In this document: piece after piece, positions 2,806-56,599 of the stretch
How positions within the stretch are numbered: the first letter of the stretch is position 1
Layout: every line of letters starts with the position of its first letter
Assembly: GCA_038143065.1 (NCBI GenBank)
Contig: JAYQLI010000012.1
Location: 32,001-96,000 of the forward strand
Source: Rhodospirillales bacterium
Lineage (GTDB): Bacteria; Pseudomonadota; Alphaproteobacteria; Bin95
DNA length: 64,000 nucleotides
Direction: 5' to 3'
Position numbers and translations under genes: made by a program
Notes under the pieces: generated by a model
Databases searched by the model: none
Told to the model about the DNA's origin: nothing
The model's input: the letters and a program-made list of their open reading frames with translations, nothing else

Positions 2806-2838
2806 AGAGAAAAATCTGAGCCGCTAGGGCCATTAAGT

Positions 2839-4879: not shown

Positions 4880-5217
4880 GGCACACTCTCAATTGAAAAT
4901 TTGAGTTCAAAGTATTCGCAAATATGAATTTAGACGGTGCACGAATGCGCCCTTTAAGGCTAAACCACCTTAAATTTTGTCAATTGTCTAGCCCCTATAC
5001 TCGCCCAGTCATTTTAAGTCGGTTGTACTAAGTAAGAATTACTGTTTTTTTCTAGGCATAGCTACACACAGGTTTGTGGAGCCAGGAAAGTCCAGTGAAA
5101 AGAATTTTTTATGACAGCAGAGCTCTGTCGAAAGTCATAATTTTGGTGCGTCTTGTAGCTCTACTTTAAAAACCAAAGAACGAAAAAGAACTTTACTCTT
5201 TAGCTCTCGGCAGGCAG

Positions 5218-5300
5218 AGCGTGTTTTAGCGCTCATGGACCCAAAGGTCAGCGTTGCGGACAAAGCCGACTTTTAAGCTCAAAGCCTTAATGTTGATTTT
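5218..5300. repeat. Modular palindromic junction site 3
   Basis: AAGGTCAGCG-TTGCGGACAA-AGCCGACTTT-15nt-AATGTTGATT. Confidence 0.6.
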
Positions 5301-16607: not shown

Positions 16608-16988
16608 TTGAGATTATCTTTTATCGGTGTCAACAATCCATGCAATACATCATTTAGCTCCCGCATGGCGCCTGATTGCTCCGCCATCCCCCACGGGGAG
16701 CAACTTCTTAGCCGTTGACGGTGAACTGCAAGAAGTAATTTGGTCATTGTTGATATGAATGGCGGTTTTGATGAATCAACCCAATGCACCTAGAACATGG
16801 CACGCAAGGCAAACATACACGACACGCGCGAACGCATCTAAAAAAGTCAAACCTTTAGTAAGTGAAAGTAGGTTGGAAAGTTGGATAGTTTGTATCTAAG
16901 GTATTGTTTAGATTGTAGAAGTAAGCCTTTCAAAAAGAGAAAGATCTTTGGAAATGTATTGGAAAGTTGTTGGAAAGCTTGTTCCTTA

Positions 16989-17190
16989 TGCCCCCTAGAA
17001 CTGTGCCAGTATATATTACAGCGGAGTAAGGAAACATGGCTGAAAGCGTTATTCTGATGAAGATGTTGAAGTTATTGCGCGAGATTGATGTTCATTTGCA
17101 CGATGGTTTGGACGTTGTGAGGCAAAAAAGTTGCAAAGCTGGGGATTTCAGATAAGAGTTATTATTTCGGCGGGCAGTTTGGAGGCCTTT
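16989..17190 (+). mobile_element. IS3-family remnant (left end plus truncated orfA)
   Basis: Degraded MARKRYSDED.LKLLREIDVHLHDGLDVV..AGISDKSYY; a homologous remnant lies at 49669-49832. Confidence 0.75.
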
Positions 17191-17468
17191 TCGCAAAAAA
17201 TAGCAGATAAATTCGATCGCTGGTATAAACATAAAGATCTCACTGCAAATATAATCGATGAGATTTCCTTCTGCCGTTATTAACGGTACGAACATTGATC
17301 CAAGAATGTGTTTTGCACTCCATTCGGGCAAGAAATACATCTTGCCTGGCAATACAGCACGTCGACTTTGGCGGAGGGATATTGTGATTTGAATTTTTGG
17401 CAAAAGCCAAGTTATCGCAATACAGAGCCAACAAAACGCGCCTGAAGCCACTTGGAAGCTCTCCAAGA

Positions 17469-17535
17469 CTCCAGTATAAAGCGCAGCGAAAGACTGGAGT
17501 GAGCCCAAAGTAGCCGTTGCTGCAAAGCGTCGACT
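17469..17535. repeat. Modular palindromic junction site 5
   Basis: ATAAAGCGCAGCGAAAGACTGGAGTGAGCCCAAAGTAGCCGTT, nearly identical to 44340-44377. Confidence 0.7.
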
Positions 17536-17690
17536 GAAGGAATAAGCGGGAGGCTAAATCCTTTCCTCAAAAAGTGCAGAACATAGTGATTGGCCTGAGC
17601 CGTCAAAAGCTAAATGAGAAGCGTCTTCAGTTCGGCAGAAAACAAGGCAGCACCTCTTCAGGTGCCACCAGTCTGTTTCGGCCAATAATA

Positions 17691-19094
17691 CTACTTCAAA
17701 ATGATTTCCGGCCCCATGATGAGGTTGGGTAGAAAGGTCGAAATCCAAGGCACGTAGGTTACCAAGATCAAGAAAACAAAAAGAACGCCTAGGAATGGAA
17801 GCGCAGCCTTGACGACCGACATCATTGGCATGCCAGCAACGCCTGAAGTGACAAATAAATTTAACCCAACCGGTGGCGTGATCATACCAATTTCCATGTT
17901 AACAACCATAATGATACCGAGGTGAATCGGATCAATGCCCAGTTCTATCGCAATTGGAAAGACCAGTGGAGCGACAATCACAAGTAATCCTGAAGGCTCC
18001 ATGAACTGCCCACCAATCAGCAGGATGATGTTCACGACGATAAGGAACATAACCGGTCCGAAGCCCGCCGATAACATTGCATTAGCCACATGTTGTGGAA
18101 CTTGTTCATCCGTCAGAACATGCTTAAGAATGAGCGCGTTTGCGATTACAAATAAGAGCGTAACGGTGAGTTTGCCTGTTTCCAGCAGCGTGTGCTTTGT
18201 ATCGGATGGAAGAAAGCTGTCACCAGCGCCCAAGGCTGACGCCATAAAGAAGTGGTCCCTCTTGGACCCTCATAGGCAGCGGAAAGATCGCGCGGGCCTT
18301 TTTCGGCAAGTGGACCCATATCTTTGTAGATAAAGTTGGCAATGAAGAATGCATAGACCGCAGCAACCGCGGCCGCTGATTGGGGTGAATACCCCTCCAT
18401 AGATACCGCCAAGGATAATCACGATTAAGAAAAGGCCCCAACCGGCTTCGCGTCCTGAGGCAAAAACCTCTCTCCATCCTCGCCATTCGCCTTTGGGTAA
18501 GTTTTTCACCTTTGCAATGACATAAATCGCGGTCATAAGCATAAAGCCAGCCAAAAGCCCCGGGATGACGCCAGCGAGAAACATCCGTCCAACCGAAACT
18601 TCCACCGAAGCCGCATAGACAACCATCACGATAGAGGGTGGAATAAGAATTCCCAGCGTACCTGCATTGCAGATCACACCTGCAGCAAAATCCTTTGAAT
18701 AGCCAACTTGGATCATTCCTCCAATAACGATCGTTCCAATTGCCACGACAGTTGCTGGTGAAGAACCTGACAGGGCTGCAAACAGCATGCAGGCAAAAAC
18801 GCCGGCAATGGCCAGCCCACCGGGCAAGTGTCCGACACAGGCAATTGAAAACCGGATGATCCGCTGGGCAACGCCGCCAGTTGTCATGAACGAAGAGGCT
18901 AGAATAAAAAACGGGATCGCAAGAAGCGTATAGTGGCCCTCGAAGGCGCTGAACAGGGTTTGGGCCACTGATGCAAGTGAACTGTCAGAAAAGGCTAGCA
19001 GAAACAGCAGGGAGGACATGCCAAGTGCGACCGCGATCGGTACACCGATAACCAGCATGCCGATGACTAAGGTAAAAAGTAGAACAACTTCCAT
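17691..19094 (-). CDS. dctM: TRAP transporter large permease, frameshifted
   Basis: LLAIPFFILA, GSSPATVVAIG, GILIPPSI, GIDPIHLGII, GMITPPVGLNLFV. Confidence 0.93.
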
Positions 19095-19761
19095 CAGGAT
19101 TTCTTTCTCAACTGCTCACGAGCATCTTGGATTTCATCTTCAACCTCATGACTGGCCACCAACCGGTCAGCCGCGCCGACCCAGAGAGCCCATGCAGCTT
19201 GCAGAAACCGGAAAAGCATCAAAGCCATTGACAATGGCAGAACGAGATATGGCAAAAGGCGTGGGATTTTCTCGTATTCTTCGCTTTCATTGAAGACAGT
19301 TTCCATCCATCCTAATATGGCGGGATGCGGGATGTCATTGACCTCGTACCATCCTTTGTCGCGGTACTTTTCTTCAAAACCGAGCGGAAACCAACGCCCC
19401 TCCGTGCCCGGCAGATTGGCGAAATTCGCCCAGTAGTCCCAAGCTCCTTTCAGCATTAGGAAAGCTGAAGGCAACGCATACAGCCACAGCAACCAACCCC
19501 CAAGACGCGGCGTGATTTCGAAGTTAGAATATTGACGACGATATCAACACCAAGATGTGAACCCTTTTTGACGGCATAAGAGGCGCCGAGGAGTACCAAC
19601 CAACCGAAGAGAAAGACAGTTAGCTCAAGAGCCCAAAGAATGTTTTTGTTGAACCCATACCGCGCCACGACGTTGGCGAATGTAATCAATGTCATTACGC
19701 CAAGAATGGCTGAGATCAACGTCTCCTCAATACGATCGGTAAACGATTTTGAGTGATTCAT
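19094..19761 (-). CDS. dctQ: TRAP transporter small permease, frameshifted
   Basis: TFANVVARY, WALELTVFLFGWLVLLGASYAVKKGSHLGVD. Confidence 0.9.
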
Positions 19762-19827
19762 AATTTAACTTTCCAAGCATGTTAGAAGGCGTCTAAAACG
19801 CCTCCGAACAGGTTGAATCAAGTGACT

Positions 19828-20820
19828 TTAATTAAGGGATTGTGCTGCGTTGATCATGTCCTGACCAACATCATCCGCGAATTGATCCCAGACTGGTTTC
19901 ATAACATCAACCCATGCCTGACGCTCTTCAGGCGTTAGAGTCCGAACTGTGCTGCCCGCCTCAATTATAGCTTGCCGGTTGGCTTGGTTTACAGCAAAGG
20001 ATTGAGCATTGCGAAGCTCAGTTACCTCGTTCAAGATCGTTAAAAACTGGTCGCGGACATCGGCTTCCAGGCTATCAAGCCAATCAACACTGGTCACAAC
20101 CAGATAGTCAATAATACCGTGGTTGGTTTCCGTGATACCGTCCTGTACTTCGAAAAACTTCTTACCATAAATGTTTGACCACGTGTTTTCTTGCCCATCA
20201 ACGACACCTTGCTGTAACCCACCATAGACTTCAGAAGGCCATTTTTTGTGGAGCTCCTCCGGAGTGCTTCCATTTGGGCCACCAAAACGTCTGACGACAT
20301 CACACGGAATTTAAGACCATTAGCGTCTGCTGGTGACATCAACGGTACATTAGCAGACATTTGTTTCATACCGTTATGCCAGAATGTCAAACCTTGAAGA
20401 CCACGCTTTTGCATACTGTCCAGCAAAGCCTGCCCAGCATCAGAGCCTTGGAATGCATCGACGGCTTCGATGTTCTCGAACATGAAAGGCAAGTCAAAGA
20501 TACGGAACTGTTTGGTGAACTTCTCAAATTTTTGACAGCGATAGGCGCTGCTAATTGAACATCATTCTGAAGCAATGCTTCAAGAACTTTATTATCGTCA
20601 TAAAGGGTTGAATTTGGGAAAACCTCCATACAGGCCTTGCCGTTCATCTCATCATTGACACGCTGCTCTAGCAACGTGGCTGCTATTCCTTTTGGATGTT
20701 TGTCAGTGTTGGTAACATGGCTAAATTTAATAACGGTTTCGCCTGTATCGCAAGCGGCAAACGCGGATGTAGCACCTAATGCAATGTCATCGATAATGCT
20801 GTGTTCAACAGAAATTTCAT
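19828..20820 (-). CDS. dctP: TRAP C4-dicarboxylate-type solute-binding protein, frameshifted
   Basis: KFSHVTNTDKHPKG, EVFPNSTLYDDNKVLEALL, WHNGMKQMSAN, GLKFRV, GQENTWSNIY. Confidence 0.92.
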
Positions 20821-42985: not shown

Positions 42986-44239
42986 ATGTCTGCAGACATA
43001 AAATACGCCTATAAACGGCATAACACCTGGGTCTATCCCTTAGAACCTATCCCAAGGCGCTGCAACCCATCCTTGGTTCCAAGCCTCAAGCAATCCCTCA
43101 GAACAGCTGATGCCAAACAGGCAAAAGTCAGAGTGGCAGAGCTTAATCAAACATTCACAAACCTCGTAAAGGAGGCACAGGCTCATGCTGATGCTGCAAC
43201 AGATGAACCCAACCCTGAAACTACTCAGCTTGGTGTGGCTTCCTCGATATCAGCGCGCAAGGCTTCTGGGTGAGCAGCCTGTTCATGGGTTAGCGAGGAG
43301 ATATCTAAAAGAGCTATCTCTAACGCTTAGACCCGGCACCACAAAGTCCATTCGCTATGCGCTGGAGCTTCTAAGTTCTCATGTAGGCAAGAAGCAAAAG
43401 ATAGGGGAGCTTAGCACTGATACAGGAAGAGATATCTTAAAGCTAATATCCAAGCTCTCTCCCAATGTCAGGAAATACGCAAAGGCTAAGGAGGCCAGCC
43501 TAACAAAGCTAGTAGAGCTCTCACAAACCTATGAGGCCATATCCCTGACACCACAAACGCAGGGCCGTATCTTCAAACAATGCAGCGCTTCCTTGACTGG
43601 TGCGTGAGAGAAGGAGAGCTAGACAGCAACCCTTGGTCAACTCTCAGCATAAGAGCAAAGCCAGAGGTCTCCCCTCATGGCGTTCTAACAGATGAGCAAG
43701 TCTCAACCCTTCTCAAAGCCAAGGATAGGGTGCTTCACAGCGCCCTTCTCTTTGGCCTGCTCACGGGAATGCGCTCAGGGGAGATCTGCGGGCTCATGGC
43801 AGAGGATGTAACCCATAAAGGCAACCTTGGGCGGTTTATCAAATCAAGCCCAACGCTATTCGGCAGCTCAAGTCAAAAGCAGCTGAACGGGAAGTACCAC
43901 TTCATCAAATCCTAGAGCAGCTTCTGGATACATCCCTGCCAAAACAGGGAAGGCTATTTCCCTACCTAACAGTTGATGCTGTGGTGAAGCGGTATGCCAA
44001 GCTCAGAAGGCTCTACCCTGAACTCCAAGGCAGCGTGTTCCACTCTACCCGCAAGTGGTTCATCACTCCAGTGTGAGCGCACAGGCACCCCTGAGCACTT
44101 CACGGCCTCCCTTGTGGGACATCACTCTGCGAGGTCTGCCAATAAGCTTACCTATAGGCTTTACTCAGGAGGCATCAGTGATGCTCAGAAGAGAGCAATT
44201 GTGGATGGGGTGAGGTTGCCATCAGAGCTGGCGTTATAA
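42986..44239 (+). CDS. Tyrosine integrase 4 (DUF6538-type), frameshifted
   Basis: KRHNTWVY, LKQSLRTADAKQA, LLTGMRSGEICGL, FHSTRKW, LVGH, final Tyr in YSGG. Confidence 0.88.
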
Positions 44240-44250
44240 CCCCTAAATAT

Positions 44251-44289
44251 CCCCCGTCTGGCTGCCCTTCGCGGGTGGTCAGGCGGGGG
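44251..44289 (+). terminator. 17-bp stem-loop directly after integrase 4
   Basis: CCCCCGTCTGGCTGCCC-TTCGC-GGGTGGTCAGGCGGGGG; all four non-Watson-Crick pairs are G-U on the + strand. Confidence 0.65.
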
Positions 44290-44326
44290 TATGACACTAA
44301 TTTTTTGTAAAATACAACTGACCAAA

Positions 44327-44400
44327 TGCGGACATTAGCATAAAGCGCAGCGAATGACTGGGTGAGCCCGAAGCAGAATTTAGCGATAAAGTCTAATGGT
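44327..44400. repeat. Modular palindromic junction site 7
   Basis: TGCGGACATT-16nt-AATGACTGGG-TGAGCCCGA-AGCAGAATTT. Confidence 0.7.
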
Positions 44401-44723
44401 TACCTTATAAATCTAAACCTAGATCGAAATCATCACACATCAGCGAAGTGCTCACAAACATTTTACAACATACGAGAATATGCTGACATATTATGCCGGT
44501 GTAACAGTGGAAGTTGCTTTGTGTCCCAAAATAGCAACTGAAATTCAACGATTATCTCTCCACCGTTACACCAATATGATCAGTGTTGGGATGAGTTTTT
44601 GTTCTGTTAAATGAGGCATTCAGCACCTTGAATGCGGAAGACATAAACAAAAGTTTATGGAGATCATTCAACATTGGGCAAACGTTGCCAGTTTGCGACT
44701 GTAAGTAAATCAACTTTTCTCGC

Positions 44724-45445
44724 TTAAAAATTCAGAAATGCCCGCCATGATTTTTTATCCGCATCTTCTAGATAATCACGAGATCCTTGCACCGTAAATG
44801 AATGACGAGCACCGCCATATACCCGCGCCGTGTGCTCCACACCGGCCTCTGTAAGCTCATTCAATAGCCCCGCTAAATCATCCATCCCTGATACTGGATC
44901 AGCGGAACCGTGCAATAAGATCGTTCCTTGAGTGTTCGAATAGTCTGGCCTTCCGGGGTCGCCAATCCTCCATGAAAACTTACAAAACCATCAAGTGGAA
45001 ACCCTGCACGCGCGCCTTCCAAGACAGCAGCACCGCCAAAACAATATCCTGCTAAGATGCTACGTGCTGTACCTTTTGAGGTTGCTTCAATCCCTTTTGA
45101 TATCCGAGCTCTGAATTCTGAGCGATCCTTGTAAAGTTTGCCTGTTTCACGACGATAATCATCAAATCCATCTAGTTTCGCATCTACACCAAACAGATCT
45201 AAGGCAACGGCCCGATAGCCTTGTTCCGCTAGCATTCTCGCTCGACCAATTTCATAGTCATCAAGTCCGTTCCAATCATGGATAATGTATACAGTTGTTG
45301 ATGCCGTGCCTTCTGGTTCGGCGACGAATGCTTTATATATGTTATCCCCGATTTGGTATGTGATCATGCTATTGTGCCCTGCCGCAATAGGTTGCGTGGC
45401 AACTAAAAGAAAAATGGATTGTAGAATTGATCTAATAAATATCAT
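44724..45445 (-). CDS. Dienelactone hydrolase family protein with signal peptide, frameshifted
   Basis: IIHDWNGL, GYCFGG nucleophile motif, SFHGGL, HGSADP, YGGARHSFT. Confidence 0.92.
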
Positions 45446-45604
45446 CTCGTGAACTCCTTCAACATCGTAGGACTAAATAGCCTGAATATTTAGATCTGCA
45501 ACTACGTATCGATTGGGTTGAGCGCGAATGGTTTGATGGTAAATATCGAAAGTGTAATGCTGGTTCTGGTGGGGTGGCTTGCACGGCTTGGGATTATGCC
45601 AAAT

Positions 45605-45720
45605 AAAAAATGGCTGACCTAGAGGAGTAGGCCAGCCAGTATCTAACTACGGGACGCGGAGGGATTGCGTCACTAATAGGAAGACTGACTTCCCCAACCA
45701 TTGCCGAAAGCCAGTCAGTG
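45605..45720 (-). ncRNA. Cuckoo/alpha-r14(CcsR)-like multi-hairpin sRNA, copy 1
   Basis: Hairpins with C/U-rich anti-SD-like loops on the minus strand (CUCCUC, AUCCCUC) ending in a terminator with U-run. Confidence 0.65.
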
Positions 45721-45850
45721 AAACAGTAACTGGTAGATACTTGTCTCAATCACCAAATCGCATCAAGCATCTGGGCGTCAAAGTTTGACCTAACGTCACA
45801 GATTTAAAATACTGATCATCTGCCTAATTTTTGTTCAACTAAAATAAAAG

Positions 45851-45957
45851 AAAAAATGGCTGACCTGTGGGAGTAGGCCAGCCAGTCTCCAACTGTCGAC
45901 ACTGGGATAGCGTCAAGGAGTAGAAGGCTGACCAGAGGGAAGTCAGGCAGCCTTCGA
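45851..45957 (-). ncRNA. Cuckoo/alpha-r14(CcsR)-like multi-hairpin sRNA, copy 2
   Basis: Three hairpins with loops containing CUUCCCUC, AUCCC and CUCCCA; terminal stem TGGCTGACCT..AGGCCAGCCA shared with copy 1. Confidence 0.65.
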
Positions 45958-46223
45958 TGACACAAAAAATTCACCTGCAGCTAGCAAGGAATTAGTAAAA
46001 TGCTAGTGTCAATTAAAGTTTACACACTTCAGATTCAGTATCAAGATAATATTTTATTTTTTTACGCTGTGTCAATCGCAGAGTAAAAAGGGCCAGATCG
46101 CATCAAGCTCAAACCAGTTAGGTATTTTCTTTGACAATGATAATATCTAATAAATTATCTTATTAAAAAGTTTCATCGGTGCTAAAAGAACACCTCAAAA
46201 TTAAAAAATGTAAAGCAAGCCAG

Positions 46224-46824
46224 ATGTACAAAATAATAGGTTCCGTCAAAAGTCGGGCGTTTCGAGTTTTATGGATGCTAGAAGAAATGGGTCTGACCCT
46301 ATGAATATACTCATGCTCCACCCCATTCAGAGTTAGTCAAACAATATAATCCCTCTGGCAAGATACCAATTCTTATAGACCGAGGCGCAGTTATTACAGA
46401 CTCAAATGCGATCATGACTTACCTAGCAGACAAACATAAGACATTGACTGCACCAGCCGGTTCAATTGAACGTGCACATCAGGATGCGCTTTCACATCAA
46501 ATCATAGACGAAATTGATGCTGTTTTGTGGGCCGCTTCTCGTCCTTCGTTAGGCCTTAAGGCATTAGAAAACTTCCCCAATATAAAAGACAGTTTCAAAC
46601 AAGAATATAAACGAAACCTTGACCGTCTTGAAAAACAGATAAAAGGGTCGTTTTTAATGGGTGACAATCTTTCTTTACCTGATTTCATCCTTGGCCATTG
46701 CGCGGGTTGGGCATATGTTGCAAAGTTTTACACTGGGAGTGAGAAATTTGGGGCATACGTTAAAAGCTTAAGAACACGACCGGCATACCAAGCTGCAGCT
46801 CGATTAGATATGTCTGACAGTTAA
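46224..46824 (+). CDS. Glutathione S-transferase, frameshifted
   Basis: SRAFRVLWMLEEMG, NPSGKIPIL, DSNAIMTYLADKH. Confidence 0.9.
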
Positions 46825-47185
46825 TAAGGTCCACATGTCCCATCAGGGGAAGGTGTGGAAGGTTTACAGATATAAGAATCTATCGAACCCAAAAGGGCAT
46901 TATCAGGCAACAAGAGCATACCGAAGGCGTTAAGACACGTTTGTATGAGATTTTGCGGACTACAAGACCCCAAATCACATACTAGCCAATAATAAATCGC
47001 TTTCTAGTGCGATACTAAATATACTTAATAAAATAAGATTAGTTTAGTTTAGTTAAAATATGCGGTGTGACTTAAGCAAAATATTTACTTCTTTAAACTA
47101 ATAGAACTGTCGCTTTCGGCAAAGAAAGCGTTTATGGCAAGCAATATCTTTGACAGACTGATTGGAACAAAGATACTGGCCTGTT

Positions 47186-48099
47186 ATGGAAGCCCGAAAG
47201 TTAGCTATTTGTTTAATTTTGGTATCTACGCTTGGGTTCGCGTTGCAAGACACGGTTGTGAAACTCCTAGCTAATATTGGTTCTTTGTGGCAATTGATGT
47301 TTCTGCGAGCAGTAATTGTCGTTTTAATTCTAATAACTTGGGCAGTACTTAAAAACCATCTAAATTTGATAAGACCAGCGGGCTGGAAGTGGCCAATTAT
47401 TCGCGCCTTTTTAATGAGTTGTGCGTACACTTTTTTTTATGCATCACTTCCTTTTACTTCACTAGCACAAGCGGCATCATGTTTTTTTATGGGCCCCATT
47501 TTTACCTGCCTATTTGCCGCCATAATATTAAAGGAAAAAATTGGAAGATGGAGAGTATCCTCAATTTTTTTGGGATTTTTAGGGGTACTTTACATTATTC
47601 AGCCCGGCACTTCTGGTATGCAGGCCATTTTGTTTTTGCCAGTTTTAGCGGGGGCATCTTACGCACTTGCAGTTGTAATAACTCGAGGATATTGCGCAGA
47701 TCACCCTGCCTTATCATTAACAATTATTCATAATGCATTTTATGCATTGATTGGCGCACTAATGATCACGGTTATTCCAATTTTCCCAATTGAAATAGAC
47801 ACACGAGTTTCAAATCCATTTGTTTTATCTGGTTGGGTACAACCAACATCAATGATACTTTTTTGATTGGAATTACATCGATCACTCATATTGTTGCAAT
47901 GACCGCCTCTATACGAGCCTATCAGTCAACCGAAAGTAGCTTTGTTGCCCCTCTAGAATACACATATTTAGTTTTTGCTCTAATAATTGATTACACGGTT
48001 TGGCAAACACTTCCTAATGCGCAGGGACTAATTGGTGTAACATTGGTTATTGGCGCAGGGGTCATGATTGCAATTAGAGAAGGAATAGAAAAGAAATAA
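47186..48099 (+). CDS. DMT/EamA family transporter, frameshifted
   Basis: QDTVVK, FFMGPIFT.LFAAIILKEKIG, VAPLEYTYLVF. Confidence 0.9.
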
Positions 48100-48445
48100 G
48101 TGGCACAATTACGCACATTTAAAGGCAGTACTAACTAGATTCTGACCTAGATAAGCGGGCATCGAAAAGCGATTGGAACAAAAAATTGCAAAACTCTTGA
48201 GAGCTGGCAAAAGTATCGTTCCCTTCACTTAAAACCTTCCACATGTTTCCACACCTTCCACCAAAGTATCCCCACCCCACCTCACATTACCAACCACTCA
48301 CCACAAAAGCGTTTAATGAGATCAGCTTGTTTGCTAAGAAAATAGCAAAGGCGAAACAGCCGCTCAGTTCTGTTTAAGTTCTGTTAACACCTGTTGGGTG
48401 CGCTGTGCCGTCAATTACAAGTTTCGGCTCTATACCTACATCAAT

Positions 48446-49052
48446 TAACTCGGGTCGTTTTCCATATATTTCGACACTTTCATTAATGCTTTTTATATCC
48501 TCTACAAAATTTCATTAACCGAGGAAATCCATCTAATAATTTTGGATCAAGCTTCTTCGACAAATCTAGGTGGTGAAAACACGCAAACTCAGCAGCTCTG
48601 GGCGTGTCATCAACAAAATACTTTCCATCATGTTTGTTCAGATAACGCTCTAAATCGAAAAATCTGCTTTCCAAATCAGCTCTCATCGCATCTCGTTTAG
48701 CTTTAAAGTCTTCACCAACCGCAAAATTAACGGTTGGATTTAAAGGCGCAAATAATTCCTGTGAACTTTGTAATACAGCACTTGCTTCAGCGGCCTTTTC
48801 TGGATCAGGTATCGTAAGACCTGCTATTGCTTCTATATAATTTAAGATCGCTATGCTCTGAGCAATCTGAGTTCCATTATCTAACTCCAAAATTGGTAAT
48901 TGTTTAAATGGCACATTTGCTTTTACGTTAATCCATTGATCGTCAAAATGATCCCAAGACATCAGATACTTGTACTCTATGCCAGAAGAGCACATCAGCA
49001 TTTGTGGTGCCTCGGCAAGCGCCCGCATTTTAAAATAAATAAGCTTAATCAT
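48446..49052 (-). CDS. Glutathione S-transferase (sigma-like)
   Basis: KLIYFKMRALAEAP, PFKQLPIL, AQSIAILNY. Confidence 0.88.
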
Positions 49053-49257
49053 CTGTCACCTTCACCAGTATGCACGATCCTAAAAGCGTAACGGCTAAAA
49101 AATAATTTTCAAAGAAATACCTTTTTCGAGAAAAAATGTGAGAGCAGGATACCTAGCAACTAGAGCGGCCGAGCTTTTTCTCCCCCCTTCTTTTTCTTGA
49201 TGTTGAACAATTCATTTGCTTAGGTTGATGCCTAATCTTTGAAGTTAAGGAAACAAA

Positions 49258-49521
49258 ATGTCATTGAACAAATATACTAAAGCCGAACTTCTTGAGATGC
49301 TTTCGTCTAGGGGCATTGATGCAAAGCCATCAATGAAGAAGGATGCGCTAATTGAATTGTTAGGAAATACCGTCGAGCCAGCGCGGGAAGAAGCAATGAT
49401 CGAAGCATCAGCGTCCGAGGAAAATACAAAGAGCACCACCAAACCAAGTGCATCTCAACCAGTATTTCTAGTAGTTGGTGTATTTATCGTACTCGCAATT
49501 CTTGCATGGATAATACTCTAA
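49258..49521 (+). CDS. Small protein with an HeH/Rho-N-like N-terminus and a C-terminal TM helix
   Basis: TKAELLEML..RGI....MKKDALIELL pattern; hydrophobic C-terminus. Confidence 0.6.
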   Translation: MSLNKYTKAELLEMLSSRGIDAKPSMKKDALIELLGNTVEPAREEAMIEASASEENTKSTTKPSASQPVFLVVGVFIVLAILAWIIL

Positions 49522-49603
49522 TATTGTTGAGATAATGTTTGCCCAGCGTTTCCTCAGAAAAGCAAAGGCTCAGCGCTTTTCCGCTAAACCCTTGATATTA
49601 GCA

Positions 49604-49636
49604 GTGAGCTGTACAGGATTTGAACCTGTGACTCTC
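49604..49636 (-). mobile_element. tRNA 3'-end remnant (probable old att site)
   Basis: Minus strand GAGAGTCACAGGTTCAAATCCTGTACAGCTCAC contains a full T-arm (ACAGG-TTCAAAT-CCTGT); flanked by CTAAACCCTTGATATT. Confidence 0.55.
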
Positions 49637-49668
49637 ATCAATTTCAATGAACTACGCTTGTTGTCTTA

Positions 49669-49832
49669 GCCCCCTAGCTCTGTGCCTTTATATTTTGGCA
49701 AAGGGAGTAAGGAAACATGTCTCGAAAGCGTTATTCTGATGCAGATGTGTTGAAGTTATTACGCAAAATTGATGTTCATTTGCACGATGGTTTAGACGTA
49801 GTAAGTGCGTGTCGCAAAGCTGGGATTTCTGG
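49669..49832 (+). mobile_element. IS3-family remnant (left end plus truncated orfA)
   Basis: MSRKRYSDADVLKLLRKIDVHLHDGLDVVSACRKAGIS, then truncated; homologous to 16989-17190. Confidence 0.8.
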
Positions 49833-49914
49833 ACTGGTTTTGAAGTAGTCGAAAGGATACAGGGTTGGGCATGTCACAGAAGTTAATTTCCAAGATGCTG
49901 CTGGGCAAGGTGGT

Positions 49915-50945
49915 TTATTCTGACAAAGCCGATGCATGCATTGTAGCCTGTAACAAAAGTCTAGGCTGAGTTTGAGCTTCCTCTTGAAAATTTAATTTTG
50001 AGCGCCATCCTCTCCAATTCGCCTGAATAAGAGCTTGAGCCGTCGCACCGCCAAGCGTGGTGCCTGGGCCCAAAACGATAAAAACATCTGGCATAAATTC
50101 ACGCGCCGCTGTGCGAATAGCTGCCGTAAAGTCATAAGGTTCAACAACCTGATGCCCTAGCGTGTAGTTATATAGCGCGCTAATATCTGTCGAGTTGGGA
50201 TACCAAATTGCACCACGACCATCAATGAGCGGGATGGTCGGTTGGACAAATAGCTGCTCTGAAAGCGCGTCAAAGCCAAGTTTGGAAATAGGTCTTTGCA
50301 AATGGGTATGAAAACCTGCATGATTTTGTAGGCGCATCGGGAAACGCCCCTGTAAAGCTGGGACTGATCTTTCAAATGCGCTCAAACCTGCCTCGTTTCC
50401 CGCAAGTACCAACATGCCACCAAGATCAATGGATAGGCCCAGATCGTGATCTGGGCGGGCGTTGATCGTGGCGGCTTCAGACAGCAAATTGTCGCGTCTG
50501 CCAGGAATTTCTTGCCAATTATCGTCTAGAAAAGGATAGATCAATTGGCCACCAATCATGTGAACTTGCATGAGCGTTCCCATGGTGTTGACAACCTGCA
50601 TCCCACCCATGGGATCAAGTGCACCCGCGCAAGCCAACGCGATATACCAACCCATGGAATTGCCCGTTATCCCAACAATATCGAAAAGATCACGATCAAT
50701 GGAAACAAAATCAGAATAGGCGCAGGCATAAATAAGCGGTGCCGCATTGTCACCGCGCGTGTGTGTGGGACCAGAAAATTGGGAAAACGTATCTAGCTCA
50801 CTGATTTTTTTTGGCCAAGCGTGGCGCGGTAAGCATCAAATTGGTCAAGATTTGGAGCGTTCGGGTGATGCCGTTTCAGATAACCGAGTTCGTTTTTATT
50901 ATAAGTGCCCCGGCCAGGCGCGATAACAACTGCGGTTTGTTTCAT
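49915..50945 (-). CDS. FabD-like acyltransferase (ACP S-malonyltransferase family), frameshifted
   Basis: VVIAPGRG, TGNSMGWY (GxSxG), HAGFHT, LGPG. Confidence 0.85.
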
Positions 50946-53125
50946 AAGGTATTCCAAAGCTTCGTAGCAGCCGTGATTATACTCTCTCGACTGGGCATTG
51001 TGGCGGCATATGCTGGACCCGTCGCGATAAAGCTATCTTCCGCAGCAAGACGTGCCACGGGGAGATCGCTGCGTTCCGTAAGCATCGCAAATAAGGCTTC
51101 GGCCTGGCCACCGGTTCCGCGACATTCATCTACAACCAGAACTTTTTGTGCACCGTCAATGGCGGATAATATGCCCTCGGCAGGAAGAGGGGCAATCCAG
51201 CGGATGTCGACAATACGTACTTCAATTCCTTGTTTTTTCAGAACTTTAGCGGCTTGTTGTGATAAATAATGACCATTGCCATAAGTGATAATAGCCAAAG
51301 GGCCATTGCCTGTAACGCCGACTTCGCCCAATGAAATGCATTCATCCATTGCGGGGTAAGTGTGCATCCAACCGCCGTCTTTTTCATCGTGCAAATCACG
51401 CATTGGATACAGCGCGATGGGTTCTACAAACACCACAACACGCTGTTCTTCGCGCGCTAGTCGTAAGCATTCGCGCAGCATTTTAACAGCGTCAGCACCG
51501 TGGGATGGGCAAGCAACGATCACTCCAGGGATGTCGCGCAAGACTGCAAGCGAATTATCGTTATGGAAATGCCCACCAAAACCTTTTTGGTAACCCAATC
51601 CCGCTATGCGCAGCACCATAGGGTTTGTGAATTGTCCATTGGAAAAAAAAGAGAGCGTTGCGGCTTCGCCGCGAATTTGATCTTCAGCGTTGTGAAAATA
51701 AGCAAGGAACTGGATCTCAGGAAGTGGAATAAACCCGTTATGGGCCAAACCGATCGCCAAGCCGAGTATGGATTGCTCATCTAGCAATGTGTCGATCACC
51801 CGATCCTGACCGAAACGATCACAAAGCTTTTGGGTCACACCATAAACGCCTCCTTTACGGCCCACGTCTTCGCCCATCATTATAATTTCAGGATGTTCAA
51901 GCATAAGATCGGTCAATGCCCAGTTTATCAACTTCGACATATTTTGAGGTTTTTCCATTTGTTGTATGTCGCTGCCGAATGCAATCTCTCGTGCCTCTTT
52001 AGATGGACCGTTGGTGAGCTTACATTCTCTTTTGGGTGGCACGATAGAGGCCATGACCTCCCGCGATGTAGACAGACGTTGTTGTTGGATCACCTCCTCA
52101 GCGACTCGAGCGCATTGCTCTTCAGTCTCAAGATATATTGAGAGAACCTGGTCAGCCGTTAGAACGCCGCTTTCGGTAAGCAAGCGCGCCGAATGCAGCA
52201 GCGGATCGTTTTGCTCCCATTCCTCAAATATACTTTTCGCCAGATAAGTTTGTTGCAGATCTGCGCCTGCATGACCGTAAAGGCGAACCAGCGAAAGATG
52301 TAAAAATGCAGGTTTCTTTCTTTTGCGGACATATTCTGCAGATGCCTGTGCTACGCAAAAAGTGTCAAATAAATCAAGGCCGTTTGCTTTGAAGTATTTC
52401 AGACCTGGTTTATTGGCAAAGCTTGCGCCAATCCAACCTTGAGGTGTGCGCGTGGAAATGCCGATATCGTTGTCTTCACAAACAAACAATAGAGGTAGTG
52501 GGACAGATTGATAGGAGGTCCAGCAGGCTGTATTTATTGCCCCTTGCGCTGTGGAATGGTTCGCCGACGCATCACCAAACGAGCACATGACAATGCTATC
52601 ATCCTTCAAAACTTTGTGTTCAGGTGGATGTCGTTTGGCTAATGAAATGGAATATGCAGTACCGACCGCTTTGGGAAGGTGACTGGCAATCGTAGACGTT
52701 TGGGGCGGGATGTTCATAGCCTTGGATCCAAGTACCTTATGACGACCGCCAGACATAGGGTCCGATTTTGCGGTGGAGAAGCTGAGCAGCATATCCCAAG
52801 CAGGTGTTGTTCCAGGCACCATTGCAGAACGGCGCGTTTGAAACGCACCATCCCGATAATGCAGAAACGCCATATCATCGGGCCGTAATGCAGAAGCAAT
52901 CGCCGCCATGCCTTCGTGCCCGGATGAACCGATGGTATAAAACCCTTGTCCAGCGCTTTGCATTTTGCGCGAGCGTCGATCAAGATTTCGGCTCAGGCAT
53001 TGAGCCCGAAAAATCGCAACGGCCTCAAAGCTAGACAAAGGACCGTATGGCGCATCACCACTGGGAAATTCACCTGCACTCACTCTGGCAAGAAAAGCCT
53101 CGTGAACGATATCTGCGCGATCCAT
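50942..53125 (-). CDS. ThDP-dependent 2-oxoacid dehydrogenase E1, alpha/beta fusion
   Basis: FGDASANH..EDN ThDP motif, GEDVGRKGGVYGVT, DTLLDEQSILG, EIQF. Confidence 0.93.
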   Translation of the reverse strand: MDRADIVHEAFLARVSAGEFPSGDAPYGPLSSFEAVAIFRAQCLSRNLDRRSRKMQSAGQGFYTIGSSGHEGMAAIASALRPDDMAFLHYRDGAFQTRRSAMVPGTTPAWDMLLSFSTAKSDPMSGGRHKVLGSKAMNIPPQTSTIASHLPKAVGTAYSISLAKRHPPEHKVLKDDSIVMCSFGDASANHSTAQGAINTACWTSYQSVPLPLLFVCEDNDIGISTRTPQGWIGASFANKPGLKYFKANGLDLFDTFCVAQASAEYVRKRKKPAFLHLSLVRLYGHAGADLQQTYLAKSIFEEWEQNDPLLHSARLLTESGVLTADQVLSIYLETEEQCARVAEEVIQQQRLSTSREVMASIVPPKRECKLTNGPSKEAREIAFGSDIQQMEKPQNMSKLINWALTDLMLEHPEIIMMGEDVGRKGGVYGVTQKLCDRFGQDRVIDTLLDEQSILGLAIGLAHNGFIPLPEIQFLAYFHNAEDQIRGEAATLSFFSNGQFTNPMVLRIAGLGYQKGFGGHFHNDNSLAVLRDIPGVIVACPSHGADAVKMLRECLRLAREEQRVVVFVEPIALYPMRDLHDEKDGGWMHTYPAMDECISLGEVGVTGNGPLAIITYGNGHYLSQQAAKVLKKQGIEVRIVDIRWIAPLPAEGILSAIDGAQKVLVVDECRGTGGQAEALFAMLTERSDLPVARLAAEDSFIATGPAYAATMPSRESIITAATKLWNTL

Positions 53126-53144
53126 AAATTATTTCCCTAGATGT

Positions 53145-54353
53145 TCAAAAAAAGGCCTGCAAGCCGGTCTGTGCGCGGCCCAAGATAAGGGCATGCACAT
53201 CATGGGTTCCTTCGTAGGTGTTAACCGTTTCCAGATTAACCATATGGCGGATCACCTGAAACTCCTCAGAAATTCCATTGCCTCCGTGCATGTCACGAGC
53301 ATGGCGAGCAATTTCTAAGGCTTTGCCGCAATTATTACGCTTCATAATACTGATCATTTCTGGCGCAGCCTTTGCCTCGTCCATCAGGCGGCCAATGCGC
53401 AAGCTTCCCTGCAAACCAAGTGTGATTTCAGTTTGCATATTGGCCAATTTCAATTGGAAAAGTTGTGTTTGAGCAAGTGGTTTATTGAACTGTTTACGAT
53501 CCAAACCATACTGGCGCGATGCATGCCAGCAGAATTCTGCAGCCCCCAGAACACCCCATGAAATACCGTAACGTGCCCGGTTCAAACACCCAAACGGCCC
53601 CTTAAGACCTTCGACATTCGGAAGCAGTGCATCTTCGCTCACTTCCAGGTTATCCATAACAATTTCGCCGGTGATTGAGGTACGCAATGACATTTTACCG
53701 CCAATTTTAGGTGCCGAAAGACCTTTCATACCTTTATCCAGAATGAAGCCGCGAATTTTATCGCCATGGGCGTTAGATTTTGCCCAAACCACAAATACAT
53801 CTGCGACTGGGCTGTTTGAAATCCACATTTTAGAACCGTTAAGGACATACCCGCCCTGCACTTTTTCTGCGCGGGTTTTCATATCACCCGGATCACTACC
53901 GGCATCTGGTTCAGTAAGCCCAAAACAACCGATGAATTCGCCACTGGCCAGTTTAGGTAAATATTTCTGACGCTGTTCTTCGGAGCCATAGGCATATATC
54001 GGATACATCACCAATGAGGATTGCACGGACATCATAGAACGGTACCCAGAATCAACACGTTCAATTTCGCGCGCAACCAGCCCGTAAGTGACATAAGATG
54101 CGCCTAAACCGCCGTATTCCTCAGGAACGGTAACGCCAAGCAAACCCATTTCTCCCATTTCACGGAAAATTTTTGTTTCTGTGGTTTCATTGGCATAGGC
54201 TTCAATAACGCGAGGCTGTAGTTTTTCTTGAGCAAAGGTACGGGCTGAATCCCGCATCATCCGTTCTTCCTCATTGAGTTGCTGCTCCAGAAAAAATGGG
54301 TCATCCCAGTTAAAACAAGACAAGCCTGGGACGTCTTTGGGTTTTAGTGACAT
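53145..54353 (-). CDS. gcdH: Glutaryl-CoA dehydrogenase
   Basis: [62 protein letters not shown]. Confidence 0.95.
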
Positions 54354-54364
54354 ATGACTATCCT

Positions 54365-55597
54365 TTATGAAAGTTTGGCCACGGCGTTAGCAATACGCGC
54401 ACAACCTTCTTTTAAATCCGCCATCGCATAGGCGTATGACAATCGAAAATGGCCGGACAAACCAAAAGCGCGCCCGGGCACAAGCGCAACGCCGGCACTG
54501 GCTAAGATGTATTCACAAAATTCGGCGTCAGTGGTTAGCTCGGTTCCATCTGGCGTTTTGAGGCCAAAGGTTTTCACACATGAGGGAAAAACATAAAACG
54601 CACCGCCCGGGGTGGGGCAATCAAGGCGCCGTGTTTTGTTCAATGCATCCACCACATAGTCTCGACGTTCTTTGAAAGACGCTAGGCGTTTGCTCAGAAC
54701 ATCTTGTGGCCCTGTAAGGGCAGCAATTGCGGCGGCCTGCGAAATTGAGCATGCTCCAGATGTGGATTGGCCCTGCACGCCCACCATTGTAGCGATAAGT
54801 TCACGCGGGCCAATGCCCCAGCCCAAACGCCAACCAGTCATGGCATAGGCTTTGGACACACCATTTACAATGAGCATGCGGGCCAAAAGGTCGGGCGCAA
54901 TTTCACGGAATGATGTGAAAGTATCATATGAGATATGTTGATAAATTTCATCTGCCAATATCCAAACATGCGGGTTTGCACGCAAAACATCAGCGAGAGC
55001 AGATAATTCTTGTGAAGAATATAACGCGCCAGACGGATTGCCAGGTGAATTCAGCAATAACCATTTTGTTTTTGATGTAATTGCGGCAGACAGTTGTGCT
55101 GGGGATAGCTTGAAATTTGTTTCGCCAGTGCATGCGACTGGCACTAAATTAGCCTGACAAAACGCTACTATGTCGGCGTATGATGTCCAATAAGGCGCAG
55201 GAACAATAACTTCGTCTCCTTGATTAAGCGTGGCCAGGAAAGCATTTGATAGCACCTGTTTCGCTCCTGTACAGACGATCACTTCGGTTTTGTCCGGTTT
55301 TCCGCTTGGGCCGGAAGCCGTGTGTTCTATAATGGCCTTCCTTAAAGAAGGTATGCCCTGCGTTGGTGGGTAAGTTGTTTGCCCTGCTAGCATAGCAGAA
55401 TGCGCGGCTTCGATGATATTCATTGGTGTTGGGAAATCTGGTTCGCCGGTACCAAAACTAAGAATATTCTCACCTTTAGCTTTGCGGGCTTGCACTGATT
55501 CTGAAATCCGAACGATTTCGGATAGTTTAACAGCTGCAGCGCGGTCAGATCTAGCAAACATAGGTGTTTTAATTTTTGTGTTCATTACGATACGCAA
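54365..55597 (-). CDS. PLP-dependent class I aminotransferase (AspC-like)
   Basis: [35 protein letters not shown]. Confidence 0.95.
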
Positions 55598-55678
55598 TTA
55601 TTTTTGTTGATATGAAACAGATATCTTTATTAATATCGAATATTACGGACAAATTTTACGAAATTTTGGAATTAGATC

Positions 55679-56599
55679 ATGTCAAAATGGAATGATACTT
55701 CCATCCCGAGGAGGTTCCTACCTCCGTTTGCGTGGCTCGCCTCGTTCGAAGCAGTTGCAAGGCGCGGATCGGTCACAACTGCGGCCCATGAACTAAACCT
55801 TACGCAAGGCGCGGTCAGTCGCCATGTGCAAAAGCTGGAACAGCAAATCGGTGTGCAGTTGTTTGAACGGGATAAGCAGCGCCTGCATTTAACGGGGTCG
55901 GGTAAGACTTATGCAGAAGAGGTGCGCCAAGGCATAAGCCAAATAACCAACGCTGGCGTCAAATTGCATACTAACCCTAATGGGGGCGCGTTGAATTTAG
56001 CGGTGCTACCAGCATTCGGAACCCATTGGTTAGCGCCGCGTTTGGCGGATTTCATTGGCCAGTGTCCTGGCGTGACAGTCAATCTGTCAACGCGAACCCG
56101 TCCTTTTGACTTTTCGAACGAGAATTTTCACGCGGCCATACATTTTGGATTGAACGACTGGCCGGACGTGAACAGCTTGTTTTTAATGGAAGAAGAAGTA
56201 GTTGCCATTGCAGCACCCCTGATCGTGAAGCCAAGCGCCGCAAACGATATGGACGAGATTCTGAAAATGCCACTGTTGCATCTGCAGACACGGCCGGCAG
56301 CGTGGAGCCGTTGGTTTGCGCAACAAGATTTAGACGTGAAAAATATAACCGGCATTCAGTTTGACCAGTTTGCGACGATGATACAAGCAGTAGTTTCTGG
56401 CCTTGGCGCGGCAATTGTGCCCAAATATCTTGTCGAGAACGAGCTAAAACAAGGGAGACTGGTTGGGCTGGGCGGTTCTGCGACATCTGTAATTGGATCG
56501 TATTTTCTTGTATGGCCAGAACGCAGCGCACATCATCCCCCGGTTATGGCTTTCCAAAAGTGGATGAAATCCCTGGTAGGAGAAAACGCAATAATTTAA
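55679..56599 (+). CDS. LysR regulator, GcvA/GcdR-like
   Basis: FEAVARRGSVTTAAHELNLTQGAVSR; divergent from the gcdH operon. Confidence 0.93.
   Translation: MSKWNDTSIPRRFLPPFAWLASFEAVARRGSVTTAAHELNLTQGAVSRHVQKLEQQIGVQLFERDKQRLHLTGSGKTYAEEVRQGISQITNAGVKLHTNPNGGALNLAVLPAFGTHWLAPRLADFIGQCPGVTVNLSTRTRPFDFSNENFHAAIHFGLNDWPDVNSLFLMEEEVVAIAAPLIVKPSAANDMDEILKMPLLHLQTRPAAWSRWFAQQDLDVKNITGIQFDQFATMIQAVVSGLGAAIVPKYLVENELKQGRLVGLGGSATSVIGSYFLVWPERSAHHPPVMAFQKWMKSLVGENAII

Follow-up and report, generated by a model that had tools for sequence, protein, structure and literature searches.

How bacteria convert 2-oxoadipate to glutaryl-CoA is the question raised by this locus, where a gene for a fused 2-oxoacid dehydrogenase E1 lies next to a gene assigned to glutaryl-CoA dehydrogenase and overlaps one for a FabD-like protein. 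In animals, the excerpts of two papers (PMC9367764, PMC10003691) describe a 2-oxoadipate dehydrogenase complex made of the DHTKD1 E1a together with E2o/E3 of the 2-oxoglutarate complex; E1a, E2o and E3 are named there and a FabD-like partner is not among them. In roseobacters, functions are given for Ruegeria pomeroyi lysdh (SPO0234) and aasadh (SPO0235) (PMC4334477), and in Phaeobacter inhibens label from lysine reaches 2-aminoadipate and glutaryl-CoA (PMC5653290); the excerpts of neither paper name a gene whose product would take 2-oxoadipate on to glutaryl-CoA. The literature that we searched names no bacterial enzyme for this step, which appears to lack assigned genes in bacteria.

The operon and a split reading frame

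The window, as we call the whole 64-kb stretch of DNA analysed, contains five genes that a sequence-only reading had described as an aminotransferase, gcdH, an E1 fusion and a FabD-like gene under a divergent LysR. All five were found where they had been placed, and their families were confirmed with Pfam and NCBIfam. The regulator gene (55679..56599, plus strand) encodes an N-terminal HTH_1 domain and a LysR substrate-binding domain, as expected of a LysR-type protein divergent from the operon; it is GcvA-like, scoring 244 bits against the NCBIfam GcvA subfamily with its cut-off of 288, and a relative was found at 46 of the 80 related loci. An A+T-rich intergenic region of 81 bp (55598..55678) with a GATAT-N8-ATATC dyad, read from the sequence, may serve as the divergent control region. 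It includes a promoter-like match at 55607-55636 (plus strand), which is a consensus match from a scan that gave fewer such sites than shuffled sequences did. On the minus strand follow the genes for a class I (Ib, AspAT-like) aminotransferase (54365..55597; Aminotran_1_2 at 2e-72; closest solved structure the AspAT AatB, 6f35, E 1e-123), the glutaryl-CoA dehydrogenase GcdH (53145..54353), the 727-residue fused E1 (50942..53125) and the FabD-like protein (49915..50945). The overlap claimed for the last two is an ATGA, in which the FabD-like ATG (50945-50943) sits on the E1 stop codon TGA (50944-50942). About 320 nt past the FabD-like stop, a consensus scan gave a terminator-like hairpin of 13 pairs (49563..49594, minus strand), although this evidence is weak, as the scan listed 11 such sites and shuffled sequences would give 9.1. 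The minus-strand genes, with the divergent LysR, make up a regulated operon that most likely serves to convert the lysine breakdown product 2-aminoadipate to crotonyl-CoA.

What the sequence-only reading overlooked, while placing the genes correctly, is that the FabD-like frame is broken in this assembly. The frame from the ATG at 50945 ends after 50 codons and the remainder lies in another frame down to 49915; the split falls at an A8 homopolymer (50805..50812, minus strand) from which one base is missing here. Intact relatives of 340-343 residues, up to 100% identical, read GQKKISELD across the A8 run, and from the translations and one such relative (P0002) the intact protein would have 343 residues. 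All four public runs compared (three DNA metagenomes from three studies and one metatranscriptome) have contigs with one extra base at or after 50804, so that the gene should be intact in nature. Other genes in the same assembly are fragmented as well (lpd, an E2 and fabD, on contig C35), and a fault of this assembly, or a lesion confined to the strain, thus explains the break better than a pseudogene shared by the whole family.

The fused E1, its FabD-fold partner and their predicted complex

The E1 has the three domains of an alpha/beta-type 2-oxoacid dehydrogenase E1, namely E1_dh (residues 41-347, 1e-28), Transket_pyr (394-573, 7e-25) and Transketolase_C (610-715, 7e-17). These are also the domains of the alpha2beta2 E1s of PDH and BCKDH (1w85/3duf, 1um9 and human BCKDH 1dtw), to which it is closest, whereas DHTKD1 is a single-chain E1 of the E1o type. 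Unlike in the alpha2beta2 enzymes, the alpha and beta parts are fused through a linker of about 45 residues, the sequences are only distantly similar (E 1e-20 to 3e-40, the best solved relatives being the PDH E1 beta of G. stearothermophilus at 3e-40 and the E1 alpha of T. thermophilus at 1e-20), the operon contains no E2 or E3 gene, and a FabD-fold partner is predicted to sit on the alpha part. Three E1 residues, H285, E470 and H521, do not vary among 28 sequences. H285 pairs in the alignment with the His that precedes the phospho-Ser in the alpha chain of BCKDH E1, in the E1 beta of G. stearothermophilus the residues facing E470 and H521 are E59 and H128, and counterparts are present in the alignments with 1dtw_A, 1um9_A and 1w85_B. 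We take H285 and H521 to be the catalytic alpha- and beta-His and E470 the cofactor-activating beta-Glu. Several Lys are invariant, and the sole invariant Cys falls in the usual CEDN motif. Because the E1 retains a His/His/Glu set that aligns with that of lipoyl-dependent E1s, and Pfam finds no lipoyl domain in either the E1 or the FabD-like protein, a lipoyl carrier and an E3 still seem to be required from elsewhere.

The FabD-like protein was modelled with high confidence (AF2, pLDDT 96.5), and the best Foldseek matches were the FabD structures 3k89 and 1mla (TM 0.75-0.84, 16-22% identity, E 3e-19). The GNSMG motif noticed earlier is present, and Ser97 and His213, invariant in 44 sequences, align with Ser92 and His201 of E. 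coli FabD (1mla), so that the protein shares both fold and Ser/His dyad with FabD. In other respects it differs from FabD. The protein reaches 38.3 bits against TIGR00128, for which the curated cut-off is 260.9, matches no Pfam family at E<=1e-3 and is about 35 residues longer than 1mla; when aligned with 1mla it has Met in place of Arg117, Arg (Arg12 here) in place of Gln11 and Asn in place of His91. In FabD, Arg117 binds the malonyl carboxylate, and Gln11 is likewise a functional position. The gene has no fab gene context, and a canonical fabD is present elsewhere in the same assembly. In a comparison by features, the look-alikes included clusters with members that carry the Pfam family VinK_C (PF21124), which we note as a lead only; VinK moves acyl groups from carrier to carrier.

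The two proteins were predicted to form a complex, the FabD-like protein docking on the alpha part of the E1, with an ipSAE of 0.78 (runs of 0.78, 0.76 and 0.79), compared to 0.38 for the best control. It passes a mark that 58 of 80 solved complexes attained, as did 2 of 110 mismatched pairs; our own alignments went into the prediction, so these calibration counts apply only roughly. At least 95% of the contacts were common to the runs and the pLDDT of the partner was at least 91. The complex was folded with a single truncated E1 chain (residues 62-727) and such E1s are dimers, in which the docking surface of the model could be hidden. The predicted interface employs FabD-like residues that are conserved specifically in this family (D242, G243, G245, E283 and P286). 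On the E1 side, interface residue 110 is Trp or Tyr in 84 of 86 partner-bearing E1s (12/12 and 72/74) versus 1 of 10 E1s from genomes in which the partner was not found, a correlation among related sequences with few independent losses. The partnerless E1 of genome G172, 66% identical overall to that of the window, agrees with it at 2 of 18 interface positions, and four sisters of G172, at 69-71% identity, do so at 6-9 of these positions.

Linkage, loss and the role of the acyltransferase

Conservation of the E1-FabD-gcdH neighbourhood had been suggested as a check on the sequence-only reading. The gene immediately upstream of the FabD-like one matches the E1 at 80 of 80 related loci (at locus L029 the match in one piece covered only E1 residues 1-373) and likewise in 11 of 11 genomes examined further, the window not counted, and in these 91 loci the FabD-like gene is never found apart from the fused E1. 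The further genomes represent at least five families and two classes, and the pair has at least 598 genome matches. gcdH is directly upstream of the E1 at 30 of the 80 loci and in 4 of the 11 further genomes, another class included.

The reverse dependence is looser. Among 20 sampled genomes that encode an E1 orthologue (E<=1e-100), 10 yielded no FabD-like gene, and profile searches of these ten whole genomes gave only matches of 43-78 bits, which lie far from the E1 and score as canonical FabD would be expected to. Two of the ten, G172 and G047, still have gcdH adjoining the E1. Well-supported branches force at least three changes between presence and absence of the partner, and four of the ten partnerless E1s fall within the partner-bearing clade, which shows that the E1 can persist without the acyltransferase and weakens an essential, E2-replacing role. 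An E1 that works with the housekeeping E2/E3, together with a FabD-like gene that is dispensable or not conserved in this context, had been named as what would speak against the sequence-only reading, and this was found in part, in that half of the sampled E1 genomes yielded no FabD-like gene. The acyltransferase thus looks like a docked accessory and not an obligatory E2 replacement.

We favour, with confidence a little short of even, a LysR-controlled lysine operon in which the E1 works on a borrowed lipoyl arm with the help of the docked acyltransferase. The AspAT-like aminotransferase would yield 2-oxoadipate, which the fused E1 would decarboxylate on thiamine diphosphate. Having no E2/E3 of its own, like DHTKD1, the E1 would then reductively glutarylate a lipoyl arm of a housekeeping 2-oxoacid dehydrogenase complex, to be re-oxidised by the E3 of the lending complex; that carrier and E3 are borrowed from elsewhere is probable. 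The acyltransferase, translationally coupled to the E1, would dock on its alpha part and use Ser97 and His213 to move glutaryl from the dihydrolipoyl arm to CoA, bypassing the non-cognate E2 core, and GcdH would convert the glutaryl-CoA to crotonyl-CoA. A specific transfer of glutaryl from arm to CoA is the more tentative part, for which we would not claim even half a chance. The broader idea that a docked FabD-fold Ser acyltransferase unloads the S-acyl-dihydrolipoyl arm just loaded by the E1, as a second, non-homologous solution to the E2 step, is rather doubtful. As an accessory, the enzyme may increase flux or keep the borrowed lipoyl arms free without being indispensable.

If this is correct, an orphan E1 could use housekeeping lipoyl arms and E3 without relying on E2 cores, and a possible engineering route to glutaryl-CoA or glutarate would follow; an acyltransferase that unloads lipoyl arms would represent an undescribed 2-oxoacid dehydrogenase architecture. 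The pair is a concrete and widespread candidate for converting 2-oxoadipate to glutaryl-CoA in bacteria, with handles for testing in the predicted interface with its co-varying aromatic E1 position 110, the natural partnerless E1s and the invariant Ser97.

The E1 could instead behave entirely as DHTKD1 does, docking on a housekeeping E2 whose own core makes glutaryl-CoA. The FabD-like protein would then have a secondary role, such as clearing wrong acyl groups from lipoyl arms, comparable to the trans-acting acyl hydrolases of polyketide synthases, or shuttling glutaryl between CoA and another carrier. The partnerless E1s, with gcdH beside two of them, argue for this, and FabD-fold hydrolases do exist, with PksD (8avz/8aw0) among the Foldseek matches; the VinK_C look-alikes point the same way, as a lead only. 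We nevertheless consider it somewhat unlikely, given the constant linkage of a FabD-like gene that overlaps the E1 stop codon and a predicted partner that is the E1 and not an E2; docking on the E1 is also not obviously necessary for a pure repair role.

The sequence-only reading had gone further and suggested a route independent of E2 and E3, in which the Ser-acyltransferase replaces the E2 step, perhaps with a free carrier such as GcvH. Its observation that the operon lacks a lipoyl E2 or E3 gene stands: neither the 64-kb window (tblastn, E<=1e-3) nor the 91 related loci gave a hit to a lipoyl domain, an E2 core or GcvH, the fused E1 has no co-encoded lipoyl-bearing E2, and the single Lpd-like match near the pair is 7.7 kb away, at locus L056. 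A self-contained pair, using a GcvH-type carrier or another oxidant, would fit this absence and the predicted complex, and GcvH is encoded on contig C35 of genome G000. However, a thioester cannot form without a two-electron acceptor, and lipoyl domains are absent from both proteins; no Cys or Lys is invariant across the FabD-like family, and the one invariant Cys of the E1 belongs to CEDN. A lipoyl carrier would still have to be re-oxidised by E3, no locus has a linked GcvH gene, and the acyltransferase is dispensable in several lineages. Together with the His/His/Glu set of the E1, this leaves E2/E3 independence improbable.

The lysine pathway and the substrate of the E1

By sequence comparison, the acyl-CoA dehydrogenase is a glutaryl-CoA dehydrogenase, with similarity to solved GcdHs across residues 12-402 (phmmer against the PDB: 4w9u, 2e-212; Burkholderia GcdH 3gnc, 4e-191; human GCDH 1sir, 1e-169), and 5 of 5 pair-bearing genomes examined that lack an adjacent gcdH encode a GcdH elsewhere (70-83% identity). 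At least one lysine-pathway gene is present at 59 of the 80 related loci, where the neighbours include GcdH (30), aldehyde dehydrogenase (39), saccharopine-dehydrogenase-like (31), class I aminotransferase (20, orthologues counted at >=45% identity) and DAO (14) genes. The neighbouring aldehyde dehydrogenase is of the ALDH7 type, for aminoadipate semialdehyde (human 4x0t, 7e-148; Pcd 6rtr, 1e-182). The genes for an aminoadipate-semialdehyde dehydrogenase and a lysine dehydrogenase were not found in genome G000 with the queries used; at related loci, aminoadipate-semialdehyde dehydrogenase and lysine-dehydrogenase-like genes lie beside the pair, as in the roseobacter pathway. Judged from gene context alone, the aminotransferase would convert 2-aminoadipate to 2-oxoadipate and the E1 would act on 2-oxoadipate, and the claimed route from 2-aminoadipate through 2-oxoadipate and glutaryl-CoA to crotonyl-CoA fits both the identity of GcdH and the lysine genes at related loci. 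That the operon serves the lower half of the 2-aminoadipate route of lysine breakdown is quite probable. The system would then resemble the animal complex, as the excerpts cited above describe it, in carrying out the same proposed reaction in lysine catabolism with an E1 that lacks its own E2/E3.

The substrate could be a different 2-oxoacid, such as 2-oxopimelate or some other dicarboxylic or hydroxylated compound, if the link to gcdH were indirect. Indeed, 21 of the 80 loci have no lysine-pathway neighbour (about eight of them are short contigs, and ten flanking genes sampled from ten full-length loci among the 21 belonged to unrelated families or none), and the acyl-CoA dehydrogenase found near a separate, long-branch clade of partnerless fused E1s shares just 49% identity with GcdH. 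This seems a poor prospect, however, because gcdH is the most constant neighbour over two classes and the aminotransferase, aminoadipate-semialdehyde dehydrogenase and lysine-dehydrogenase-like genes all indicate 2-oxoadipate. Finally, an E1 that releases glutarate semialdehyde non-oxidatively, for oxidation by the aldehyde dehydrogenase that follows the pair at many loci (39/80), is highly improbable, as that dehydrogenase is of the ALDH7/aminoadipate-semialdehyde type, both His that align with the lipoyl-acylation pair are invariant, and the acyltransferase would be left without a role and GcdH without a source of its CoA ester.

Gene content and pathway context of the operon

The operon and its LysR-family gene span 49915-56599 of the window. 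The LysR-family gene (55679-56599, plus strand) is divergent from four minus-strand genes: a class I aminotransferase (55597-54365), an acyl-CoA dehydrogenase (54353-53145), the fused E1 of 727 residues (53125-50942) and the FabD-like gene, which carries the motif GNSMG and ends at 49915. The E1 contains E1_dh, Transket_pyr and Transketolase_C domains, and its stop codon shares bases with the FabD-like ATG as ATGA. The gene order, families, overlap and motif described in the sequence-only reading are borne out by the sequence and, for the families, by Pfam and NCBIfam. Close matches to solved structures (Burkholderia 3gnc, 4e-191; human 1sir, 1e-169) identify the acyl-CoA dehydrogenase as glutaryl-CoA dehydrogenase, GcdH, and the aminotransferase is nearest to rhizobial aspartate aminotransferases (6f35, 1e-123). 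Promoter and terminator scans of the window gave results at chance level. Metatranscriptome contigs cover parts of both pair genes, which is no proof of transcription because DNA carry-over is possible.

The FabD-like protein has at least 598 genome matches, and in all of the best 80 of these the gene immediately upstream, in the same orientation, encodes the fused E1. The family was present in 10 genomes of a 400-genome phylum sample and, with the genome G040 added, E1 adjoined it in 11 of 11. The order gcdH-E1-acyltransferase is also retained in another class. At least one lysine-pathway gene occurs in 59 of the 80 best loci (GcdH in 30, aldehyde dehydrogenase of the ALDH7/aminoadipate-semialdehyde type in 39, saccharopine-dehydrogenase-like in 31, class I aminotransferase in 20 and DAO-type oxidase in 14), and where gcdH does not adjoin the pair, GcdH is encoded elsewhere in the genome (five of five cases). 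At 10 full-length loci without pathway genes, 10 sampled flanking genes belonged to unrelated families or to none. Taken together, the neighbouring lysine-pathway genes, GcdH and the ALDH7 type point to a route via 2-oxoadipate, and the pair probably provides the middle step of 2-aminoadipate to 2-oxoadipate to glutaryl-CoA to crotonyl-CoA, which is well supported by gene context. The proposed conversion of 2-oxoadipate to glutaryl-CoA thus gains from the identity of GcdH and from its neighbours, as an assignment made by context. We found neither a bacterial gene for this conversion nor a description of the pair in the literature searched, and in excerpts of PMC5653290, PMC7645780 and PMC4334477 the 2-oxoadipate step has no bacterial gene assigned.

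Just downstream of the operon, window 44000-49900 has a G+C content of 0.37-0.41, compared to ~0.49 in the operon, and few long ORFs. In relatives, aldehyde dehydrogenase and lysine-dehydrogenase-like genes often lie 3' of the FabD-like gene; they are absent there in the window, and the queries used did not find them in the source assembly.

The acyltransferase family and its association with E1

The FabD-like family is small and distinct: among 1.84 billion representative proteins, 597 clusters match it at E<=1e-3, of which 139 reach E<=1e-30. A 44-member profile reaches solved FabDs at only ~1e-17 to 3e-19. The AlphaFold model (pLDDT 96.5) nevertheless has the FabD fold (Foldseek TM 0.75-0.84 at 16-22% identity), and Ser97 and His213, invariant in the family, align with the FabD dyad. 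In the alignment FabD Arg117, the clamp on the malonyl carboxylate, is replaced by Met, Gln11 by Arg and His91 by Asn. The protein scores 38 bits against the curated FabD family, below the cut-off of 260.9, and a canonical fabD is present elsewhere in the assembly. The retained fold and dyad, the three substitutions, the failed cut-off and the separate fabD together argue that this is a FabD-fold Ser/His acyltransferase but not the malonyl transferase that serves fatty-acid synthesis.

When longer proteins were searched for E1-acyltransferase fusions, P0272 and P0273 came up; both look like frameshift read-throughs and not like true fusions. P0137 and P0164 also appear chimeric. The sole candidate joining the C-terminal half of an E1 beta part to a FabD-like part in frame was P0254, a 595-residue protein of the representative library. 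Its E1 portion is 28% identical to residues 503-706 of the window E1, its FabD-like portion matches at 35% identity (E 3e-40), and ~55 residues link the two. P0254 may be a naturally fused protein, but as it is a single fragment with both ends cut or odd, we left it out as evidence.

With E1 as query on the same 400-genome sample (orthologues at E<=1e-100), orthologues of 46-71% identity were found in 20 genomes. The sequence-only reading had allowed that the FabD-like gene might be dispensable or not conserved with E1, and this holds in part: only 10 of the 20 E1 genomes carry the gene, although from the FabD-like side E1 always adjoins. The acyltransferase is never found without E1, and E1 persists without the acyltransferase. 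Nothing FabD-like turned up in the other 10 E1 loci, even with the threshold relaxed to E<=10, and whole-genome profile searches of these 10 partner-less genomes gave only 43-78-bit matches, far from E1 and as weak as ordinary FabD would be expected to score. Three of the 10 contain some masked bases, none of them in the fetched loci, and seven are wholly unmasked. No family was shared among 10 flanking ORFs scanned in the partner-less loci as a common substitute (SDR, FMN reductase, GGDEF, MatE, a weak lactonase match and five without family). The locus of one partner-less genome, G172, reads LysR-GcdH-E1 followed by an ABC transporter, and that of another, G047, reads GcdH-E1. We placed 22 E1s in a maximum-likelihood tree. 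Six of the partner-less E1s form a separate long-branch clade, and four more fall within the partner-bearing clade: G172 groups inside its own family (support 98/93), and the closest relative of G047 is an E1 that has the partner (100/99). This tree requires no fewer than three changes of partner state.

The long-branch clade comprises loci L143-L148 (genomes G175, G191, G401, G083, G350 and G281), with E1s at 46-49% identity. Three of these loci have an acyl-CoA dehydrogenase within ~1.4-6.5 kb that is only 49% identical to GcdH, and the clade may represent a sister system that acts on a different substrate.

We predicted the complex of E1 residues 62-727 (one shortened chain, where the enzyme is normally a dimer) with acyltransferase residues 1-334, using one alignment each. 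The ipSAE was 0.78 (runs 0.78, 0.76 and 0.79) compared to 0.38 for the best control. Of solved complexes 58 of 80 attain that mark, whereas only 2 of 110 mismatched pairs do; these counts are rough and the calibration is only approximate, because our own alignments were supplied. At least 95% of contacts were common to the runs, with partner pLDDT of at least 91. No E1 bound to a FabD-fold protein occurs among the PDB matches to the FabD-like profile (60 listed of 72), the 43 to E1 or the listed Foldseek matches, so a pass from predictor memory is unlikely. The predicted interface sets E1 residues 101-110 and 321-344 against acyltransferase residues 242-251 and 275-286, and includes the conserved acyltransferase residues D242, G243, G245, E283 and P286. 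As a predictor-independent check we compared E1 residue 110. All 12 E1s of the tree set that have the partner carry Trp or Tyr there, as do 72 of 74 further loci with the pair; among 10 partner-less E1s only one is aromatic at this position, the others having Arg or Met. The comparison draws on related sequences with few independent losses. G172 shares 2 of 18 interface positions with the window at 66% identity, compared to 6-9 of 18 in four sisters at 69-71%. The prediction supports binding of E1 and acyltransferase, and the latter looks like a catalytically intact accessory docked on E1.

Probable dependence on a lipoyl carrier and a possible role of the acyltransferase

Oxidation to a thioester requires a two-electron acceptor. 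By Pfam the fused E1 has no lipoyl domain, its sole invariant Cys falls in the usual CEDN motif, and no Cys or Lys is invariant across the acyltransferase family. E1 residues His285, His521 and Glu470 are invariant in 28 sequences and align with the catalytic alpha-His, beta-His and beta-Glu of lipoyl-dependent E1s. Because an acceptor is needed, lipoyl is absent from the pair and these residues are retained, we think that E1 probably borrows a lipoyl carrier and E3 from elsewhere. The animal 2-oxoadipate E1 likewise borrows its lipoyl arm and E3, using the E2/E3 of another complex, according to an excerpt of PMC9367764. The source assembly holds E2 cores, lipoyl domains, Lpd-like genes and GcvH, most of them on contig C35; as C35 and the window contig are doubtfully from one organism, these matches say little about the carrier of E1.

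For the acyltransferase, the most economical role, which we put forward tentatively, is that it would take glutaryl off the loaded dihydrolipoyl arm and hand it on to CoA, with no recourse to a non-cognate E2 core. The main rival, in which a housekeeping E2 core transfers glutaryl and the acyltransferase edits or repairs, is only slightly less likely. That the pair works independently of E2/E3, as the sequence-only reading suggested, is unlikely: its observation of no linked E2 core, lipoyl domain or GcvH gene holds in the window and in 91 related loci, but the acceptor is still required and the pair offers neither a lipoyl domain nor an invariant acyltransferase Cys or Lys.

The frameshift and the make-up of the source assembly

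In the window the FabD-like frame breaks after 50 codons, within an A8 run at 50805-50812. Relatives of up to 100% identity are intact at 340-343 residues, and contigs of all four public runs aligned to the window (three DNA metagenomes, each of a different study, plus one metatranscriptome) have one more base at the A-run. Other genes of the assembly are also in pieces. Together these findings make an assembly error the likeliest cause of the break; failing that, it would be a lesion confined to this strain. On C35, several housekeeping genes (two lpd copies, an E2 and fabD) lie in two or three pieces with different frames or internal stops (for example 1190796-1192179, 305364-306037 and 1012994-1013868), a pattern that points to numerous indel errors along C35.

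The assembly is possibly a composite. The window E1 nests with full support in family f24, and the assembly itself is filed under family f1. The FabD-like gene is present in none of 9 same-genus and none of 24 same-family genomes, and the first 20 kb of the window have no real DNA match in the 9 same-genus genomes. In tetranucleotide make-up the 2.86-Mb C35 is set apart from most small contigs on PC2, and the reported contamination is 5.5%.

Segments of 0.2-2.5 kb from window 1-1057, 2753-5266 and 16772-20000 have further copies, 85-99% identical, on contigs C1, C2, C8, C13, C43 and C50, and one more on C12, whose positions 32001-96000 are the window; C35 has none. These look like mobile-element copies common to the small contigs. 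Near-duplicate operons of E1 alpha, E1 beta and a two-lipoyl E2, with identical lipoyl-domain scores, lie at C10:14120-19024, where the E1 beta is in pieces, and at C17:20116-25409; they may reflect redundant variants of a strain or duplication during assembly.
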